Origin: Catajapyx aquilonaris
Lineage: Eukaryota
Assembly (NCBI GenBank): GCA_000934665.2
Contig: KZ537974.1
Coordinates: forward strand, 62,001-126,000
DNA length: 64,000 nt
Reading direction: 5' to 3'
How positions within the stretch are numbered: position 1 is the stretch's first letter; each line of letters begins with the position of its first letter. The translations under genes and the position numbers were made by a program. Below, piece by piece: positions 7,301-58,776 of this stretch. A model generated the notes under the pieces. The model was given only the letters and a program-made list of their open reading frames with translations, ran no database searches and had not been told where the DNA came from.

Positions 7301-7584
7301 GAAATTTTGGGCTTGTAAAAGTAAAGACCGTTTGTATATCAACTAGAATTATTAATCGTTCGAGTTGATGCAACCGGTTTCAAGCCAAAATTTAAGGGAA
7401 GATCTCTGATTATGTCTAGGAATTCGCGGGATTTTCTCATAATTTGCGTACATACAATCGGTCCTAATAAGGCAATGCGGAATATTGTTCACGTTACAAA
7501 TATGCATTGCGGACATTCCCAGAGATGCCGTACTCTGAATGCGTCATTAACGTCCTGTTTATGAATGCACCAAACTTTAACTTG

Positions 7585-7617
7585 TGACTAATAATCATGT
7601 CTTCTTTACAGGTAAGT
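7585..7617 (+). promoter_or_regulatory. Candidate recursive splice site (ratchet point, zero-length exon): juxtaposed 3' and 5' splice sites
   Basis: Sequence tgaCTAAT-aatcatg-tcttcttta-CAG|GTAAGT. Branch-point match at 7588-7592, pyrimidine tract 7600-7607, AG at 7610-7611, perfect donor at 7612-7617. No AG occurs in 7525-7609. It is on the same strand as the CadN exon. Confidence 0.7.
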
Positions 7618-7661
7618 GTCGTTCACCTCACGAGAGTTCTTCCTGCAGTGTCTGCGCAAAG
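7612..7661 (+). other. Candidate 50-nt cryptic ratchet-point exon
   Basis: Runs from the ratchet AG to a second donor AAG|GTAGGC at 7662-7667. Its length is not a multiple of 3. Confidence 0.5.
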
Positions 7662-10308
7662 GTAGGCTTGTGTTTGAGTTATTATGTGTGAGCGTGTATT
7701 TGCAAGGAGAAGTGGATTTGTACCTATCAAAATATATTTTCATCCTCTGCACCTTATCTCATCTCCCTTATTCTAAACTCGCCGTTCCCACCCTCCGGAA
7801 TATCAAGTTATTCAAATCGATCCGAGAAGAGTGCAAGGGAAGGTTGACACAAAACGTCATCTTAACGGCTCGATAATTCTCACATTGATTGCCCCCTTTG
7901 GGAGCCTAGTAATGGATTTTATAACCGATCGGATTATGGAGAATATATTGGGAGCAAGCTTCTCAGAATTTTATTCCCTCACCGCGCGGGGGCACGCTAA
8001 TCGACGAATGTGACACTAGACCTAATGTGCGGGGTTTTGGGAGGCTCTATATTTGTAGATGGAGAGAAATTGAGGATCTACTCACCTTGGGGCTGCTTTT
8101 CCTCTTGGGGCTTCAGATGCACTTAGGTTACCTGTTTACATACTTGCAAGCACGCTATGGTGTAATTTTTAATGTTCATACCTATAGACAGGAGTTATGG
8201 CTATTAGTTGCGCCTGTGCTAACACCAGCCTGTCCACAGTCTCAGAAGTTAGATCAAAGGGTCTCAGGGCAAGTATTTCGACTCTTATCCGTGCTTCTTC
8301 CTCCATTCCTTTTCACCTTTCCCGACCAACTCTTTCCACTTGACGCTGCTCTCAAAAGTTGCTCAGACTTTGCCAGCGGAAGCTGAATCATCCACTTCCC
8401 CATTCCTATTGCTCCAGACTTTCCTGCTGCAGATAAATCCATGTTTCGTAGTGCGTCTAGGGAGGTGTGCTGCAGGGCTCTATGACCTCCAGCAGCCGGG
8501 ATTTTCCTAGGAGAAAAGCGCACAATTCGCAACTTGAAACACGCTCGCACATATTCGTACAGTATATCACATGGAAAACCGGCTGGACTACCCCTGAAAA
8601 CTTTTGAGGCACTTTGTGGTATCAGCTTAATCCTAACCGCAGATCGTTTGGCGCGGTTTATTCGGTCTTATGAACTCGCGACCCTTAATCCCGACCATGA
8701 ATCAAGGGAATGACTTTCTCCATCAACATGTAATATTGCTCCCAAACTTCATTTCCACATTAAGGGTCGGGCATTAAGCCGGACCATTTGAGACACGGGG
8801 TGTGTATATAGTCGCAGGGCATCACCCCGTACCCCCAGAAATATTGAATTCAAGTGGGGCAGTTAAAATCTGCGGGATACGAGCTCTAGGGTTTGCTGGG
8901 ACGTGGCGGTTCTTCTGGAGCGGGAATTAATTTTGACAATTCCGGGCGACAATTCGGGCGACGGCCAACTTTATTCGATTGTGGAACTTTCCCCCTAGAG
9001 TTGTAGTGACATGTTGACGAACTGCTTGGGTGAATCAACTCCCGAACTCGGGGGTCCATTTTTGCGATTTTTATTATCCTGGATCATACTGTATAGACAG
9101 AGTATATCACAGCTTTTCTGCAGATCAGGTGAATGGACAGTGTTTCGAATATTTTTTCGTCGCAGCGTGTTTGCAGTACATGAGAACATGCTACTGTCCA
9201 CGGTATGCGTATGCAAAATCCTCGTATGTTTTATATATAGGGTCAAGCTAGACAGCCCGTTTTTCGCGTATGGCTACGGATTTTTCCACGATCATTACAA
9301 TGTAAATGAATCGGAACCGCTTGGAACAGGCCGAGTGGATTAAAATGGAAAGGTATGCAGGCATAGGAGGAAGTTGCAGGTTTGCTGGAGCCCTGCTCTG
9401 AAAAAGCCCTAGGCCCCGCGTTTCGGCCAATCCCAAAATTCGCTACATTATCGAGGAAATTTCCGCTCGAATGGCATTCGACATGGGATCAGCTATGGAA
9501 TGGAAGGTAAAAAAAAAAAAATTGCAGAGTTTCCGCTGCACATATCCGAATATCCTCGAATATACAGGAGGACCATCTCCACATACACGCATATGATCGC
9601 GCAGGGGGACGCAGGGGCACACATGCTTCTGACGTGGCGGATGGCAGTGTGCGTTGTTCCCCGCAAATATCCGGGTAAATAATCCGGGGGAGCGGCCAAC
9701 CGGTTCCAAAATCAACTCTGCCATTTTTTGAGTAAACCGAGCTGTCAGCAGCCTCATGTTGTGACGATAAACATGGCGCCGCCATTCTGCACTCATGATA
9801 TCGTGGTCCCCTCAAATTACGTTGCTGCTCACTCAGATGTACTTTGGCGGATAAGCACCCACCAGATTTTTTACCACCCACTTTTTACGTCGCCTTTCAC
9901 CCATTCTAGGGGGGGGGGGGGGGGCAATTGGCTGCGGTTTGGGATGTAATTTCTCAGCCGGATAACAAAATATGTCGCATAAATTGCGTTAATTTGAGGG
10001 GTAACTTATGATAATGGAGTGTGTTTTTTTGATAGGCTATTATATGACCTGCATTATATTTTTAAGGGTGTATCGTTGCGTGGCGGTCATGCGTTAATCA
10101 GCTATTGTTAGGAACATGTACTTAGTGCGACTTTGTTGTAGCTACAAAGCTTTCTGATTATGAATGCGTCCAAACAAGAGCTGGTTGTACCTGCGCACGT
10201 ACTGAAGCTTGTGGTCGTGTGATTAACATGAGTGTATTTTTATAATGAGACTGCTATAGGAAGTCTATTGTGGAACTATAGGGTTGCAGTGAATTTTTTA
10301 CAATGTAC

Positions 10309-17000: not shown

Positions 17001-20000
17001 AGGGTATTGCTTTTAATGCCGGAAGGGGTTAGGTAAAATTCCCTGGTACTGGAATAACCCGTAACATTCTCGGTGAAAGAACTGTACACTGAACACGCGC
17101 GATTATTTTTGTAATGTGGCCCGAAATTCCCCAAAAATGTGAAGATACAGGCCTCGGATGTGCCCCGCATCCCCTTGCTGTTGCCGTTGGCCAGTACGCA
17201 TACGATATGCTGATCACTTGATATACGGTAACTCCAGAGTTCTGTTTTACTATGAGAATATTTTATTACCAACTTTTCATAGGGAAATGTTACTTGCAAT
17301 TATTAATGCTGCAGGGAAGACTGTAATAATCAGGAAATTTAATTTAGAAGGGTAGAGGGCTATGTGTAACTTAATTATTTCTCCGTACTGACGTTTGCAG
17401 TAGTCGTATATTTGCTTCAACTCCTAGCTTAAGTTGGAACAGATGGCGATTCCCAGGAGCTATACTGTATATGATCGAATAAATAGTTTTTCGCTCTCGG
17501 GAGTCAACACCTGTTCAAACTGATATCAGGAGTTCAAAAACTAACATATATCTGTTGGAAACTAAAACCTGCATTCAGGATGTTTTGTGCCCGATAGTCT
17601 ATCTCGGTCCTGGTTGGTCCCTCAACATTTCTCAATCCTACATTTTTGTTTTGTACTGGAGCAATTACCCTGCCACATGCCGGCGGGATCTTCGACTATA
17701 TATAGTCAGAAACACCTAGCATACGTATACTAAATGAACTACGTAAATATTAGTGAAAGCTGTTATTTTGGGCGAATTTATTCTTCTTTGACAATTAGCG
17801 ATTCGGTTACGGGTGAACCATGTAGTAACGAGGGTAGATTAAAGTTGCAATTCGCATGCAAAAGTGTATGATGCGGATTAAATCGTGTTTTCAAAGCAAA
17901 ATTATCGAAACCCCACGTTTATACGTATTTACCAGCTTCTAACAGAGCTCTCTACAAAATTTCAAAGCATCATAATGGGATCTGATTCTACGACATGTAA
18001 TTCAATTTTCGTTTTTTTTTTTCCTATATCGCCTAGTGTGCAAAAAACCAAGCCATCGCTCTTGAATTCATGCACCGTGCGAGTAAAATGAAAAGGACAA
18101 GTGCCCCTCTTTTTTCATTCCGGAGACGGTCAATTTAGCCTGACAAACATGACTCGGAAGGAAGGGCTGGTGGGTGGTGGGTTGGGTGCTCCTGGAGGCG
18201 TACATGACCGGATACCGTTCCAGCTGGCCGAATGTGAAGCAAAGGACCCGGGGTTTTCCCGCGATTAACTCGTCAACAAAAGCCTCGTTTTGCTCGCCCG
18301 GACAATCCCTTCATTTCTACTCGGTCCCCATAGTTACTCCGTGTCACTTGAAGGCGACTTGACCCAGCTCGGGAATTCCTGCAGACGAGTCAGTTCCTTC
18401 AACCCCCCCTTCATCTCTTTTGGGGGCTGGACTGCTAGTGAGGGTAATGGATGTGGTTGGCAGGGATACTTTGTCATGGCAGTGACATTAAGTCCTGTCC
18501 TACTTACCTGCACTTGGACCTGACTGTGCTCCGAAACCCATTACCCGCTGGGAGAGGACCAGGTTGTAGGATGAGGACAGTCACATTTGCATGGACTGCC
18601 ACGTTATCTGTCCCGTGTTGCGAAATTAGCTCTCCTCCATTAGCTTCTTACTTGAAAAGTTGTCACACCTGTCAGGTGCACTGGTTGTATTTTATTATTC
18701 ATGGGGTGGACAAATGGCGAATTATGAGTTCGGGCCGGAAACATGTCTGGTGACAATTCTCGTCAAATTGAGTTACGCACTCCTAGGAAAAGAGGTATCT
18801 CAATTAGCGAATGGCATCGCGGATTTAAGTCATTCCATTTTCAAAATGAAAAATAAATTCTGATGGTGTCATAACGGTTTGAATAAATGAATTAGAAATT
18901 GCTGTTCTTGCAAAATATTGATATGGGCATAGGTACACACGAAATTTTGTACAATTCTCAACACATAATTTAAGATTTTCTCATTAATTTTCATTCATAC
19001 AACCATCCCCTATTGGCCGCCATATTAAACTTTTGTAAGTTTTCACTCATCTCCGGGTTTTTTCGTGTGTTTCACTTTGGAAGGCCCGGAAGTGAGTTAT
19101 CCCATGGTGATCAATATTGTAAACGGCTTTCGGCAGGCACCATATTTTCCGTCAACCTTTGTATTCGGAAAGTTTAATTAGAGAAAACTGGCGCTTTCTT
19201 CGGCGCGTCGGATTCGCATTTTAATTGGAGAAGATGCCAAAGGCGCTCTCTTCTTCTTCTTTTTTTCTTTCACCGGGGAATATTAAGTCCGGAGGATCGA
19301 CTTTAATTAAGAGGCATAAATCTCCCATGCCGTTCCCCCCCCCCTTTTTTTTTGTATTCTATCCCGCCATTTTGGGAACATGAGCCATGAGGGTTCAGAG
19401 TGGAAGATAGGCAGCTTTGAGTAGCCCCAATGCGAACTGGAGTGCTTTTGTTAGGTTCATACACACAATATGAAAAACAATACCTGCTCTCACTACATCT
19501 TCAGAGTCGTACATTTTGGGCAGTGTCATGCACATTATGCAGAAAATCTATCCATAAACGAAAATGTAACTTCGAAGAAACTGATAACATGCCCTGGATT
19601 TAATTAGTTTAATGGTGCAAAAATCTGGGGCTTTTCATGTAAAATAATTAGCAGTATTATGCGGACGCAACAGTTAATTCGGTTCAACGTGTGAGTGCAT
19701 TTCTGCATTGGGAGAATGGAATTAGCATTTTGATTGTCATCGGTGAGTGAATTTTAACTCATTTTGGAAAGTTAGTCATTCATTATGAACCTATTAGAAA
19801 GTGCTGCTCTTCCTTGCAACCTAATTCTTGATCGCGGGTGCAAACTTCTGGCCGAGTTGCAAAGCGGGGTTGGAGGGCCGGAAATTGCCCTTATTTCAGT
19901 ACCGGGTGTCTTATCGAAAGGGTGGAATGAAAATGGTGCCAGATCAATAATAAACGTGCGCCACGATTAATTCCGGGAGAGTGAAATCGGAGGCTTTTGT

Positions 20001-33730: not shown

Positions 33731-33740
33731 NNNNNNNNNN
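33731..33740. other. Assembly gap (N10) between a C run and an A run
   Basis: cccc-nnnnnnnnnn-aaaaaaaaa; true gap length unknown. Confidence 0.97.
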
Positions 33741-42700: not shown

Positions 42701-44184
42701 AAATGGTTTGGAAACTACTACCCCGTGTACATAACACCTAGTAATACACACTGCCATTAGCGTCGCTCGCCGGAATATAACACATCAAGATTTACATGCT
42801 TGCGCGATTGTACATGAACCAGAAAATTACACGTGACGTCATCCATTCAGGCAGTAAAATTGGGTATTTTAGGCGCAATTTACTCGCGAAAAAATATATA
42901 TCAAGTTGGTCCAAATTTGACGAGCCATGGTTGGATGAAATGAAGCGGGAGCCAGATTCTATTCCAAGTCTTTCAGACTTTTTTTTTTTTCAAAAAAAAA
43001 GAAGAAGAAGAGATAGAAGTCTCGTCGTTTATCAGCCGGAATAAGTAGGTTTAGTGGCACAGAGTTTGAGCCGTTTCGGCGCTTGAGTCGTGAATGACAT
43101 TTCCTCCCAATTTATCATGGGGACGATTGCCGTGTGGAAATCGATAATCATTAGGTAGGTGGGACGCTGGGTAGATATCGAGTGATGGGTGGGGCGGCCC
43201 CGGGGCGGATAATGTTGTGGGGGGCATGCCGTGAGATGGGAGAGAAGCGACCGTAATTGGCAGGGCATCGACCCTATATCCTCTACCCCACTCTTTGTTT
43301 CACCCCTGCCGCTGTTATTAAGCTGGGAGAGAGACAGAAGAGATGCATCGATTAGTGCTTGTTCCTGTCGAAACGGGAGATAAGTGACTCTTCAAATCCT
43401 ATATGGGGAAAAGCAGGGGCCGTCCTTCAGGTTCAAGTAGAATTTTGTTAGCATGTACAGTACAAGGATCAAAAGGACTGTGTGTGCATGGAAGGAGCGG
43501 TTGCGTGTCAGGCACAAAGCTGATAGTTGGGGGTCCAACAGTCAGTGGACAGTAGATAACGAGGGTATTCTGACTATCTGACAGGTTTTTGTCATGTCTG
43601 AAATCCAGGGTTAATTCGCACCGTTTAAGTGTGGTTGCAAAAGCATTTTACGGCATGTAAAAGTTTCATGTGGTTTGCCGGAATTTTTGTAGTGTAATGT
43701 ATGCCTGTGTACTGTGGTAACTTACAGATTTTTGTAATGAGGTGTGTGAGGAGGTTCCGTTTTAGATGTTAAACTGTAGGCGACAGAAATGTGCATGTTC
43801 ACGTCGCTTTTCATGAAAAAAATTATGTACGCTTTATTTGGTGCGGCATATGTTTACACAGCTCGATACTACACGCCTTGCTCGGGACATAAAAGGCAAT
43901 TTAAAAATTATGAAATCCAATTTTGACTAACCGTTTCAAAACTGTCTAACATTCAACAACACTCCCGCCTGATGTTAAAACAACATAGACGCAGCTCTTG
44001 GTCGATATGCAGTTACCACCCGGACAGACCGAGTAAGGGTCACATTTAGCAGTCAGTATAACTTTGAAATGACCCAAATAAGCAATTTGGAAATAAATTT
44101 GGGTGGGCAGCCCCTGGTAGAGTTTGGGCCGAGGAGAAAGCGGCATATATCGACGCGCATTGGCCTGGTCCCGAGCTGGTGCCT

Positions 44185-44220
44185 GCGTCGGAGGCGTCGG
44201 AGGCGTCGGCGGGCGCCGGG
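44185..44220. repeat. 9-bp GC-rich tandem repeat (GCGTCGGAG, about 3-4 units) in a small CpG-rich patch
   Basis: gcgtcggag gcgtcggag gcgtcggcg ggcgccggg. Confidence 0.85.
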
Positions 44221-47200
44221 GAGGGAAGCAGTCGAGCCAAGGGCCGCCTCCGATTCAGATCCGATCCTCCACTGCTCGGATACACATCCTGTACCACCCA
44301 CTATAAGACCATGAGTGTCACTCTTCAGGGTGCGTGTGCGCGTGTTGATTCCAGTGCGTGATTTTTTGGCGGCTTCTTGATTTTTGGGGGATAAGGGTGG
44401 GTCGTTTTTTTAGGTGGCTCTGGCCAGTGATGTGACGTGTGTATCATTCCTAAGTGACGGGAATGGTTGATCCCCTCAAAGTTTTCTGGGTGTTAACCAA
44501 CAGCACCTACTTAGGTGAGTTATAACCTGTTATTAATGGTGGTTATCAAGATACGGGAAGGGAGCATCATTTTGGTGGGGTGAATAATTCATTATCCTGC
44601 CTGCGTTCTCCATTTGAGCCATTAGGAGTAGAATTTTCCCCTGTTAATAATATATGATAGGGAATTTATGATTTGGAGCGGAAGTCGAAATATCAGCGCT
44701 GGACAGGGCGGTGCAGAGGAAAAAAAAGGCCAAATTCCCATGACCCCCTTTTTGGGTTTTTGCACATTTCCAATTCCATCACCCTTCCCGCACATTACCA
44801 GCAAACGGTTTCCATGCCCGGTTATTATTCATCATCCCAACTGCATGGGCCAAGTGTTCCGCCAGAGGCCATTGTTATTGGTTCCTGGGAGAGCCTGTTG
44901 TACCCTGCACCAGGGAATCGGATGGTGACTGCGAATTTCATAACTTATATTCTGAATATTTGAAATTCTACCTAGCTGATTTGAGTAATAGCCAAGTTGG
45001 ACTTTTTGAACCGCCCTGTCCACTATGCAAACACTGTACAGTTGGAGTGTACAGTCCGCCTTTGACCTAGGCATGTATGCTTTGAGCCGCCCCTCGTTTG
45101 ACACACACATGACCCTTATTCATCCTTCCTTTTCCGAGTGTGCCCAGCTATTGAACAAGTCGCGTCCTTTTGTTCCTCCACTTTGAATCGGAGCAGACGA
45201 CACCGTGTGCTCCAACTCTCTCCAAAAAGCTAGACAATCTGCAGCTAGAAAATTGCCAATTAATTTCGGACCAAATGTTGGAAATGGAATTAAAAGAAAT
45301 GTTGCGGTAGGTCTGACAGCCCCCTCCCTTCTTTCCTGTAGGCCCTTTTGTACGTGACCTGAGGAAATGCTGGTGGGATGGTGCAGGAAGATTGATCACC
45401 TGAGCCTTTTGTTTCCTAATCGGCACATTGCTGGCGTGATGATTAATCCTGAAATATATTTTTTTGTGACGTTTAACAGGCCAACTTCATTTGCAGACGG
45501 AATGAAGGTTCAGGCCCGAAGTTTTTTTTTGTTGGATTGCCACTAAATAGTGGGTCGATTTGTGTTGTGGCTGCGTGATTGTGTATGATTTAGGGCCTTC
45601 TGGTTTGATTGCGCAGGGATTAGAGCTCAGGGCAACATTCACTGTTGGGATTATCCAGGACCTCCGTCCCATGTGTTGTTCAGATTATGTTCTGTGCCCG
45701 CAGTTAGTCTGGCAACAAAAGAGTTGCATTTATCGCCAATAACACTCCCGTTGCCTTTTGTGCCCGGGAAAAGGTTTACGCGAATGCTATACGGTGGCTT
45801 AAAGTATTGGCCCGTTGTTTTTAGCAAGAACAGCCCTTTTATTTGTGAAGAGTGTTTGCGAAATAAAGCGAAATTGTGTCAGTATAGTTGAGGATATTTT
45901 GTGAATCCAGCTTAGCTTTTTTTACCACTTTACCTGATATCTTTGTGCAGGGATACTGCTTTGTTTTCTCAGGTTTTCAGTAACAGATTTTTGTTTTTTT
46001 TTTGGACTGCCCGGTGGTAATTTCATTTGTACACAATATTCCAATATTTTAACCTGCACATGAGCCGCATCGATTTTCAATCGCGCTACGCATTTTAGCT
46101 ATCTGAGACACAATGTGTGTTCTGAAAGCAACAGTAGTGCTGAACCCGAATGGAGAGTTCCTTCTGGCGCTGCGATTTTAATTGCCCTGACATCATAACT
46201 GGGTCGGCCCAGAATTCTCAATTAGGCTGCACAAAACACCTCAGGTTTTCCAGCAGTATGCAAATAACAGGCCTCCTGTATAAAGAAAAAGTTTGGTCAC
46301 GGTTGCTATTCACAGCCTTTTGTGTTTTTCACTCTTTCAAGCGTGCCCGGAGAGCTCTTTTTTGTGTGTAAAACTTACAACCGGTTATTGTTGAACAAGG
46401 TTGGACACGCCTGGCCGCATTCTATTATTTACCGCATATAATTTGGTAGCCAGAAAATAGTGCAAAATAGTGAGTTGAAGTCTGAACACGTCGTAACTCC
46501 CAGAGTCCGCCTCATTTGGGACTTTGACGTCCGTCAGATTGCAACTTAGGAGTTAGTGGCCAGGGAGCCTCAAGTTGGGCGGAGGCCCTAATTTGTTGAC
46601 GTGTGCTGGGGCAAGTTAGGGGGGGGGGGGGGTGGCGGNTAGTCGGAAGCTAGTTAGTTGCTCGGCTGAGCCAACCATCACTCGAGATGGCTTACATCTG
46701 GAATGCACTTGGCCGGACACAAATCCTCTTCCGCTGCTGGAGCCTGGCTGGAGGAAAGCACAATAGCGCAGCGGTCTGGAAACGGGCAAGATGCTGCGGC
46801 AGCAGGGGAAAATACAAATTCCTGGCCAGGTGCAATCAATGGGCTTGCTTGCCGCCGTCTATTTGTTGTGGCTCCGGGGGAATTCCGGGTGGGACAATTG
46901 GCGCGTCGGGTTTTTGTGGCCAACAATAGCTTGAAATGTAATTGGGTAGGACGGAAGGGAGGTTGGCCTAATAATTGTGTACATGTACAGTCAGTGAAAA
47001 TATCATGTTTGGGGAAATCCAGCTGATGAAACCCGCACTCTTTTCAATGTGACGTGTCTAGGTAGATAAGCCCCGTTTCGTGGAATTACAGATTTGAGTT
47101 GACTTTTGGTTGCGGGATGTGAGACATTGTCTGATGTAATCTGAAATGTTTTCCACTTATCCTGTCGCATTAGTGGGGCGTGTGATCAACGACCTGCATT

Positions 47201-56622: not shown

Positions 56623-57400
56623 AACGAACTATTTATTTCCTCCCCATTTTTTTGCGGAAGGGTTGAAATCAGGTTGATCCCACTTGACGGGTTGGCATTC
56701 CTTTTGTCGTCATCCCGGGAGGGCTCCCATCATTACTGATGCAGATCCAAAGGATTTGAGATATTTAGCAGTCGGCACATTTTGGCAGATTAGTAGCTTC
56801 AGGTGAGAGGGGATTTACAGATGTTAAGCCTAGGGAGGACATGATGTGACCTTTCGTTTCTGCGACTGCAGATTCGGTGCAATACGTTGCAAAGTAATCA
56901 TGGTCGGAAGCAATCTCGTCCAGGCTGAAGGTAAGCCCGGCGCTTGGGGCTGGCATAAAGTGGACTTATCCGCAATATTACTGCTGGGGTTAGTAGGTTT
57001 GGGTTTTCAGTGGGGGTGGGGAACGTTTTCTGTACCTGCTCACAATGAGGATACATTTGAATGGGTTTGTTGGCACCAATTTTCCGGCCGTTTTGCTCCT
57101 GGAGATTAGCTCTCGTTTTTTTTCGGGTGTACGCTGAGGGCATGGTAATGGCCCTGCTGGTTGTGTATAGGGTGAGGGGGTTGGGTGTATAACCTACACG
57201 TGCCCCGGATATTTTGCGCCTCTTTTCCGGCTCGTTACAGTTAGACCCCAGCAACCCACCGCTCCCTGACGCGGTTTTTGTTGCAACCAACCTACCCAAA
57301 GTGCGCTTCTAAACGACCGTTGCATGTCGAGGAATTTGTTGCGAATATGCCCGCATGTCCCTGTCACCAAACGTAATATGCATTTTTCTACTACTTTCAG

Positions 57401-57544
57401 TGACCAAGTTCATCCGCATCGGAATCGCCGACAAGAATGACAACCCGCCATACTTCGACAAGGCGCTGTACGAGGCTGAGGTTGACGAGAACGAAGACAT
57501 CCAGCACACCGTCCTCACCGTCACTGCCAAAGATCACGACGAAT
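57401..57544 (+). CDS. CadN: Internal coding exon of neural cadherin (DN-cadherin / type III classical cadherin), spanning an EC-repeat junction; probable orthologue of Drosophila CadN alternative exon 13
   Basis: Acceptor catttttctactactttcAG ends at 57400 and donor GTAAGT starts at 57545. The exon is 144 nt with phase 1 on both sides. Translation (G)TG-TKFIRIGIADKNDNPPYFDKALYEAEVDENEDIQHTVLTVTAKDHDE-T contains the cadherin Ca2+-binding motifs DxNDNxP, xDE and AxDxD. Third codon positions are strongly C/G-rich compared with the flanks. It is nearly identical to the DN-cadherin segment as I recall it. Confidence 0.95.
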
Positions 57545-58776
57545 GTAAGTACCTTGCTTTCACCCTCCTTGGGCACGTTTTGGGTGTGCTGTACACGGTT
57601 TGGGCTGCAAGCTGCAAATTGCATTTCTGCTCCCGAATACACATCCGCTCGCTCGATGGGGCCAGAAATTGCCGTCAGGATAGCTTGTTGCCTCCGATGA
57701 TGATGTCAACACGAGTGCCGCCTTCTCCGGGAGAGTGTCCTCTCCCCCATATTGAATTAAGGCGTCCTTCGAAGGGGAAGAGTGCCCTCTTTAGGCCATA
57801 AACCCAACTTGTGCCCGCGTATATTTTTGAGAGGTTGCAGGATGGGCTGGAAATGAGCAGAAAAATATGTTGCAGTATGATACGACCACATTGCCAAGGT
57901 AAGTAAAATTGGTTGTTTTTAAATGAATGGAGCGGCAAAGTCCGGTTTCCTATTCAGCTGATGCGGAGAGACATTTGGCGCCGACTTTACCACAGGAATT
58001 GCAACTCGGCGGGGGTCGGGAAGGCACAAAAAAAAAACATAATGCATGCATAGCGGGGATAATACAGACATTTGGTGGATATATAGGAATGGCGGTGGTG
58101 GTGACAGCTGGGAGTGAATTCCGCGGCCAAACACTCCCGATTATTAATCAATGCGGCCGTTCCGATTGTTTGCGCGATCGGGTGTGGAGAGGCTTGAAAT
58201 GAGGTGGGGAAAATGCGGGACATCTGCCGAGCCCCCATGTTTTTAGCCCGGGCCACGAACCTTCGCTCATGGACGTTAATTACCAAGGGAATGACGGCCA
58301 ATTTCCCTCCCTCCCTATATGGAAAGAGAGGATTCCAACGACGCTTTTCTGGAAGCAAGTTTTGTCGGGCCTCGGGCCAGCCCTTGTTGGTAGTCGTGTC
58401 TGAAGCAGTTGCAGGAGCTCGTGTAGGATTTATCAAAGGCACCCCCTGGCAACATCCATCCCTGCTGATGCTGCTGCGCGCCCCAGGCAAGGAAAAGCCT
58501 ACGCAGTAAGCCCGTTTGGCCGACTTATCCACCTCTATGGAGTGGCAGCTGCTGAGGCTTTATTGCACCTATGCACTTGAGAGAGCGCACCAGAGCGAAA
58601 ACGCCCCTCAAGTTTGCCAAGACACCGAGTTAGAGTGGGGTAGGGATGCATGAAGGCACACCCTGACGCTCATTTCAGGCCGCGGTTGCACGCTGTAATT
58701 GAAATCGGAACTTGGTAGCCAATGGGGTGAGAGGTGATCACGTGGTTCGATGCGCTAGTCTAATTGGCTGGAATTG

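Follow-up and report, generated by a model that had tools for sequence, protein, structure and literature searches.

A candidate Drosophila-type recursive splice site within a long intron of neural cadherin

The window analyzed here, a stretch of DNA of 64 kb considered at its full length, carries on its plus strand a 144-nt exon of neural cadherin (Table 1). The 47-aa translation of this exon, TKFIRIGIADKNDNPPYFDKALYEAEVDENEDIQHTVLTVTAKDHDE (beginning TKFIRIGIADKNDNPPYF), aligns at 98-100% identity with neural-cadherins from many insects, at E-values down to 4e-57, and the insects matched at this level include beetles, lacewing, locust, psyllid and flies among others. Outside the insects, the identity amounts to 94% in a centipede, 85% in a horseshoe crab and 83% in an ostracod. 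A Pfam scan of the 162-aa frame surrounding the exon returned no match, because the exon is short, and the intron-encoded flanks of the exon were common to none of the short matches from other insects; judged by these flanks, the sequence is not one of Drosophila. The assignment of the gene to neural cadherin, which the initial annotation had proposed, is thus well founded upon the 98-100% identity of the exon translation, and the same comparison places the host among the insects.

To delimit the intron preceding this exon, the window was searched by tblastn with eleven neural-cadherins, five of them long. The five long proteins located neither the preceding long-isoform exon (which ends ...ARPNSNGQPNS in relatives) anywhere in the window nor any other long-isoform exon within positions 1-57400. 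Since the preceding exon is absent from the window, the intron of the long isoforms should exceed 57.4 kb and reach past the window start, in agreement with the earlier estimate of more than 57 kb. Within this intron, the feature of principal interest is an AG/GT boundary (the slash marks the splice junction throughout) that we refer to as the 7610 site. Its placement inside the intron is by homology with other insects. The initial annotation had located it on the CadN sense strand about 50 kb upstream of the next exon, and the exon at 57401 indeed lies on the same strand 49.8 kb downstream, a distance that is approximate due to an intervening gap of 10 Ns at 33731-33740. Besides this assembly gap, single Ns are found at 46639, 49054, 52292 and 60267.

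Apart from its two cadherin exons, the window resembles plain non-coding DNA. None of 92 open frames of at least 95 aa on both strands matched a Pfam family at E-values up to 0.01, an Rfam scan of the window likewise yielded no match, and the window contains no internal repeats of at least 60 nt. The lack of any recognizable transposon remains in a 57-kb intron is a notable feature in itself. When the window was divided into 2-kb bins, GC skew was positive in 30 of the 32 and AT skew was negative in 25 of the 32, with no break at the 7610 site. This pattern is weakly consistent with a single plus-strand transcription unit spanning the window.

The second cadherin exon is an ATG-initiated one at 44463, so that the earlier statement that the gene has no exon for 50 kb downstream of the candidate site was mistaken; this exon falls between 7612 and 57400. 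Its coding sequence, MVDPLKVFWVLTNSTYL, matches the N-terminus of a neural-cadherin isoform from Chrysoperla carnea (1711 aa) at 17 of 17 positions and is near-identical in the neural-cadherins of Anthonomus grandis and Diaphorina citri. The exon is followed by a GTGAGT donor at 44515, and its joining to the exon at 57401 produces an in-frame read-through. Judged by this homology, 44463-44514 is the predicted beginning of a short isoform that starts from within the long intron, which would imply an old internal promoter at this exon and a short isoform devoid of the N-terminal cadherin repeats. Approximately 200-300 nt 5' of the alternative ATG, the plus strand exhibits a GC-rich stretch (44150-44280) containing repeated GGAGGCGTC units, which may be the promoter. 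Closer to the ATG, a run of T followed by AG/GTGGCT occupies 44405-44419 (+), and the tttttttAG portion of it (44405-44413) may be an acceptor to which a non-coding exon farther upstream is joined.

Table 1. Features of the neural-cadherin locus and of the candidate recursive splice site within the window
Feature	Position	Strand	Basis or remark
AG-free zone, 85 nt	7525..7609	+	preceding AG at 7523-7524
CTTTAAC, branch-point candidate, A at 7580 (-32)	7575..7581	+	inferred from motif
CTAAT, branch-point candidate, A at 7591 (-21)	7588..7592	+	inferred from motif
Acceptor half: pyrimidine run TCTTCTTT (7600-7607), then ACAG	7600..7611	+	sequence
Donor half GTAAGT, candidate regenerated 5' splice site, exact consensus match	7612..7617	+	sequence
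Candidate cryptic recursive exon, 50 nt, skipping expected	7612..7661	+	motif level
Weaker donor AAG/GTAGGC, could close the candidate recursive exon	7662..7667	+	5/7 non-GT consensus positions
Alternative first coding exon with its own ATG, covering MVDPLKVFWVLTNSTYL and the initial base of a Val codon	44463..44514	+	tblastn
Neural-cadherin exon, 144 nt, acceptor ...ctactactttcAG, donor GTAAGT at 57545	57401..57544	+	translation and homology

At the 7610 site, the plus strand of the window reads ...ccaaaCTTTAACttgtgaCTAATaatcatgTCTTCTTTACAG/GTAAGTgtcgtt..., such that an acceptor end (...TCTTCTTTACAG, with its AG at 7610-7611) is followed immediately by GTAAGT. The individual elements reported previously, namely the AG-free zone, the CTAAT, the pyrimidine tract and the CAG/GTAAGT, were all found where they had been placed. 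An AG-free zone as long as that of the acceptor half is uncommon: just 24 of the 3729 plus-strand AGs in the window (0.64%) are preceded on their 5' side by an AG-free stretch of at least 85 bases. The two T residues at 7606 and 7607 place a TT at positions -6/-5 of the site, while 12 of the 16 positions from -5 to -20 are pyrimidines and the longest uninterrupted pyrimidine run measures 8 nt. On the donor side, CAG/GTAAGT agrees with the donor consensus at 9/9 positions (7/7 of the variable, non-GT positions). The next good donor, GTAGGC at 7662, is located exactly 50 nt 3' of 7612 and would delimit a small exon whose length is not divisible by 3, and its inclusion would consequently break the reading frame: following a phase-1 exon, 7612-7661 provides 17 open codons before a TGA is created at the junction with the exon at 57401. 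As 12.3% of random plus-strand positions have an equally good or better donor 25-90 nt downstream, the 50-nt spacing itself adds little weight.

How readily such a combination could arise was assessed with simple rules, both within the window and in 3400 dinucleotide-preserving shuffles of it. The window contains 221 AG/GT sites on the plus strand and 177 on the minus strand, among which the 7610 site is alone in having a GTRAG donor behind an acceptor with TT at -6/-5 and Y at -3. A pyrimidine-rich acceptor precedes 10 of the plus-strand sites and 5 of the minus-strand sites, and none of these except 7610 has more than 4/6 donor matches. The initial annotation had described it as the sole site in the window combining all of the parts, and it retains that status across both sets of AG/GT sites. 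The YAG/GTAAGT motif by itself occurs once per strand; the minus-strand copy at 18510 is without a tract (8/20 pyrimidines) and has an AG-free zone of 3 nt. Under the fly-derived rule, the real window yields 1 match on the plus strand and 0 on the minus strand, and the antisense strand, which serves as a natural control, contains zero sites even under the loosest rule. Among the shuffles, 270/3400 contained at least one match to TT (-6/-5), Y (-3) and AG/GTRAGT, a count that fell to 20/3400 upon addition of at least 12/16 pyrimidines at -5 to -20 and to 5/3400 upon further addition of an AG-free zone of at least 40 nt. These counts are somewhat flattering, as the rule thresholds were fixed after the site was seen, and shuffled DNA is a simpler null than genuine intronic DNA.

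A second exact AG/GTAAGT is present on the plus strand at 57897-57904, 353 nt past the donor of the cadherin exon. Its acceptor side is poor, with 11/20 pyrimidines and an AG-free zone of 21 nt, and we consider it probably a chance occurrence. Together with a possible acceptor at 57835-57840 (ttgcAG), it would delimit a 58-nt non-coding exon.

The observed basis for interpreting the 7610 site consists of its sequence elements, their rarity in the window, the identity of the gene, the strand and the effect of the cryptic exon upon the reading frame. Of the explanations considered, the one we favor is that 7610-7617 constitutes a functional intronic ratchet point of the Drosophila type, situated in the >57-kb intron before the exon at 57401-57544, and we regard the chances of this being so as about even. 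The context fits a ratchet point, as the gene encodes a neuronal adhesion molecule, the site is on its sense strand and no long-isoform exon falls within 1-57400. The two-step removal that we infer at the RNA level, step by step, would proceed as follows. Once transcription had advanced past approximately 7670, positions 7612-7661 would be seen as a small exon with TCTTCTTTACAG at its acceptor and AAG/GTAGGC as its closing donor. Splicing of the long-isoform exon situated upstream, beyond the window, to 7612 would then remove the first segment of the intron. The resulting junction of the exon end with GTAAGT would remake a strong 5' splice site, one expected to prevail over the weaker donor at 7662. 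Finally, the joining of this remade donor to the acceptor at 57400 would excise the remaining 49.8 kb, cryptic exon included, without a trace in the mRNA. An additional suggestion of the initial annotation, that the regenerated donor selects the downstream and possibly alternative exon, received no support.

Several observations count against a ratchet point. Its tract is short, with 8 contiguous pyrimidines and 12/16 at -5 to -20, and the confirmed acceptor at 57400 possesses a richer tract. In addition, the AG/GT scan found no second candidate site in the remaining 49.8 kb, a stretch well above the mean segment length of the fly, albeit inside its range. A genome of expanded introns would also dilute the true sites and leave the background unchanged, and it is this dilution in a large genome, together with a weaker-than-typical acceptor, that led us to set the likelihood of function at roughly one half.

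A second possibility is that the 7610 site is simply a coincidence of acceptor-like and donor-like sequences in neutral intron DNA, either unused or a source of splicing noise. We view this as a serious rival, though a less probable one. YAG/GTAAGT is hardly a rare motif, given its single occurrence on each strand and the frequency with which the looser rule was matched in shuffled sequence; measured against fly sites, the pyrimidine tract is weak; and both the features and the thresholds were picked after the site had been seen. Furthermore, in a 2009 survey the antisense strands of several insects carry a background of about 0.1 RP-sites per 100 kb (PMC2773006), and at such a density a large genome must hold many chance sites. 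What a coincidence accommodates less easily is the complete combination, which arose in only 5-20 of the 3400 shuffles, depending upon the stringency of the rule, and which has no counterpart on the window's antisense strand. It would further require that the 85-nt AG-free zone, the branch-point candidates, the TT at -5/-6 and the 50-nt donor spacing all coincide. If the site is a chance motif after all, then it is merely an example of the background.

Another explanation is that the boundary marks an ordinary exon that has escaped annotation, either a non-coding 5' exon ending at 7611, with GTAAGT as its donor and perhaps transcribed from an intronic promoter, or a regulated 50-nt cassette or poison exon corresponding to 7612-7661 that some transcripts would retain. 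The internal start exon at 44463-44514 in the same intron suggests that internal promoters exist in this gene, and the possible acceptor at 44405-44413 could take an upstream non-coding exon. Usable signals also flank 7612-7661, and the premature stop that results upon its inclusion is reminiscent of a poison exon. A plain 5' exon, however, leaves the entire acceptor half unexplained, from the AG-free zone through the tract to the TT at -5/-6, whereas a plain cassette exon leaves unexplained why its first six bases should be a perfect GTAAGT. Moreover, extra residues at this junction are present in 0/5 of the long neural-cadherins compared. We consider an ordinary exon edge to be unlikely. Less probable still, and in our estimation very improbable, is that the sequence functions solely as a landing site for U1 snRNP. 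In vertebrates, U1 shields nascent RNA from premature cleavage and polyadenylation, a phenomenon termed telescripting. Here, CAGGTAAGT would bind U1 and guard the nascent transcript in the same manner while remaining unspliced. Its agreement with 9/9 positions of the donor consensus would suit such a role, as would the thought that this protection matters in long neuronal introns, but the acceptor features would again go unexplained and a single site per 57 kb would afford little protection.

If the 7610 site is a genuine ratchet point, it would offer a concrete case of recursive splicing, open to testing, from beyond Drosophila and in a neuronal adhesion gene that is conserved. For such insects, the evidence that we found in the literature consists of motif statistics and one indirectly supported site in locust. 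It would also provide a handle on how expanded insect genomes process introns of at least 50 kb, while the known principle of recursive splicing would be unchanged. One could go further and propose that zero-length recursive splicing operates as a conserved means of removing the expanded introns of non-drosophilid insects and that the CadN site, with its skipped 50-nt poison exon, acts as a checkpoint upstream of the internal promoter exon at 44463-44514, committing long-isoform transcripts to the acceptor at 57400 and mis-spliced ones to decay. This extended proposal is conjectural, and we regard it as improbable.

The search for a related sequence elsewhere produced a single match in one scan, a 1571-nt metagenome contig containing the 20-nt core of the site. 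This was rejected as a chance match, as the flanks are unrelated: only a 26-nt stretch including the core aligns, at 96% identity, and the contig has a GC content of 34%. With respect to the literature, a search at the level of main texts found none linking recursive splicing with CadN or N-cadherin. For D. melanogaster CadN (FBgn0015609; PMC7655102), the terms "CadN" and "FBgn0015609" have 0 occurrences in 5 supplementary files of the S2-cell catalogue (PMC6110457), in 2 supplementary files of PMC8605326 and in all but one of the supplementary files of PMC8906543. Its absence from the S2-cell catalogue counts against a ratchet point, but may simply indicate that the gene is not expressed in S2 cells.

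The initial annotation had considered such sites to be poorly catalogued outside of the drosophilids. The novelty is weaker than this had suggested, in view of the RP-site enrichment described in 2009 (PMC2773006) and of a prediction made in locust (PMC8892266). The survey of Shepard et al. reported that RP-sites are enriched in the large introns of mosquito, bee, beetle and sea urchin, and its Table 2 expresses density as RP-sites per 100 kb of introns >50 kb, in comparison to the complementary strand (PMC2773006). The tabulated sense and antisense densities are 2.196 and 0.101 for fruit fly, 1.029 and 0.000 for mosquito, 0.807 and 0.101 for beetle, 0.484 and 0.122 for bee, and 0.540 and 0.066 for sea urchin. 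From these values it follows that most sense-strand matches in the large introns of insects exceed the background; taken at face value, the excess would account for 75-95% of them. In locust, a recursive site was predicted within the 230-kb intron of NPF1, with indirect support from a U2AF65 pull-down (PMC8892266). The 7610 site has in common with both reports that all are predictions made at the level of the motif, in long introns of non-fly insects. The survey is nevertheless a genome-wide statistic and the locust site belongs to another gene, and neither report, in the parts available, names neural cadherin. The locust site also differs in the pull-down that indirectly backs it, while the 7610 site is a prediction from sequence.

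The most detailed comparison is afforded by the ratchet points of Drosophila. These are AG/GT sites with a juxtaposed splice-site consensus, a prominent pyrimidine tract and a strongly conserved core (10.1101/006163), and examples of the genes that carry zero-nucleotide ratchet points include Ubx, kuz, osp, fz and luna (10.1101/006163; PMC6110457). Their shared (Y)nNCAG/GTAAGT arrangement is matched here by ACAG/GTAAGT at 7608-7617. TT occupies -5/-6 in 196/197 of the fly sites (10.1101/006163), as it does at the 7610 site. Recursive branch points of the fly are situated mostly at -36 to -21 with a peak at -30 (10.1101/006163), and both of the present branch-point candidates fall within this range, although the A of CTAAT (-21) is at its edge. 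A ratchet point of this type is expected to have a stronger tract than ordinary acceptors do, and it is the tract that sets the 7610 site at the weak end. Positions -5 to -20 were counted by hand for 17 sites of Pai et al., the first ones among 47 displayed rows of their site table; the number of pyrimidines was 12-16 (median 14), and 1 of the 17 was as low as 12. A further distinction is the manner of recognition, since the fly catalogue is defined by junction reads, saw-tooth coverage, lariats and conservation, whereas the 7610 site is recognized from its DNA sequence.

The parallels extend to what follows the site as well. Fly ratchet points carry a cryptic exon of about 50 nt that has a weaker closing donor and is mostly out of frame, and because the RS-exon is generally out of frame, it must be skipped (PMC8605326). 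The 50-nt candidate exon at 7612-7661 corresponds to the RS-exons described by Joseph and Lai, and to the vertebrate model of Sibley et al. cited therein, in that the regenerated donor forms the beginning of an exon close to 50 nt in length (PMC8605326). The weaker closing donor (5/7 versus 7/7) and the frame-breaking length are likewise shared, with the present exon being a prediction. The genomic setting is also comparable. The host introns of the fly measure 11-133 kb and are removed in segments of 2.6-63.6 kb (mean about 18 kb), and their genes mostly reach peak expression in the nervous system (10.1101/006163). In S2 cells, a high-confidence recursive site is found in 63% of introns >40 kb (PMC6110457). 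The 7610 site similarly resides on the sense strand of a >40-kb intron in a neuronal or developmental gene, and the 49.8-kb segment downstream of it is inside the range removed in the fly. Drosophila provides a well-established precedent for recursive splicing at such sites, and the 7610 site is best viewed as a plausible further case, rather than as a site of a new kind.
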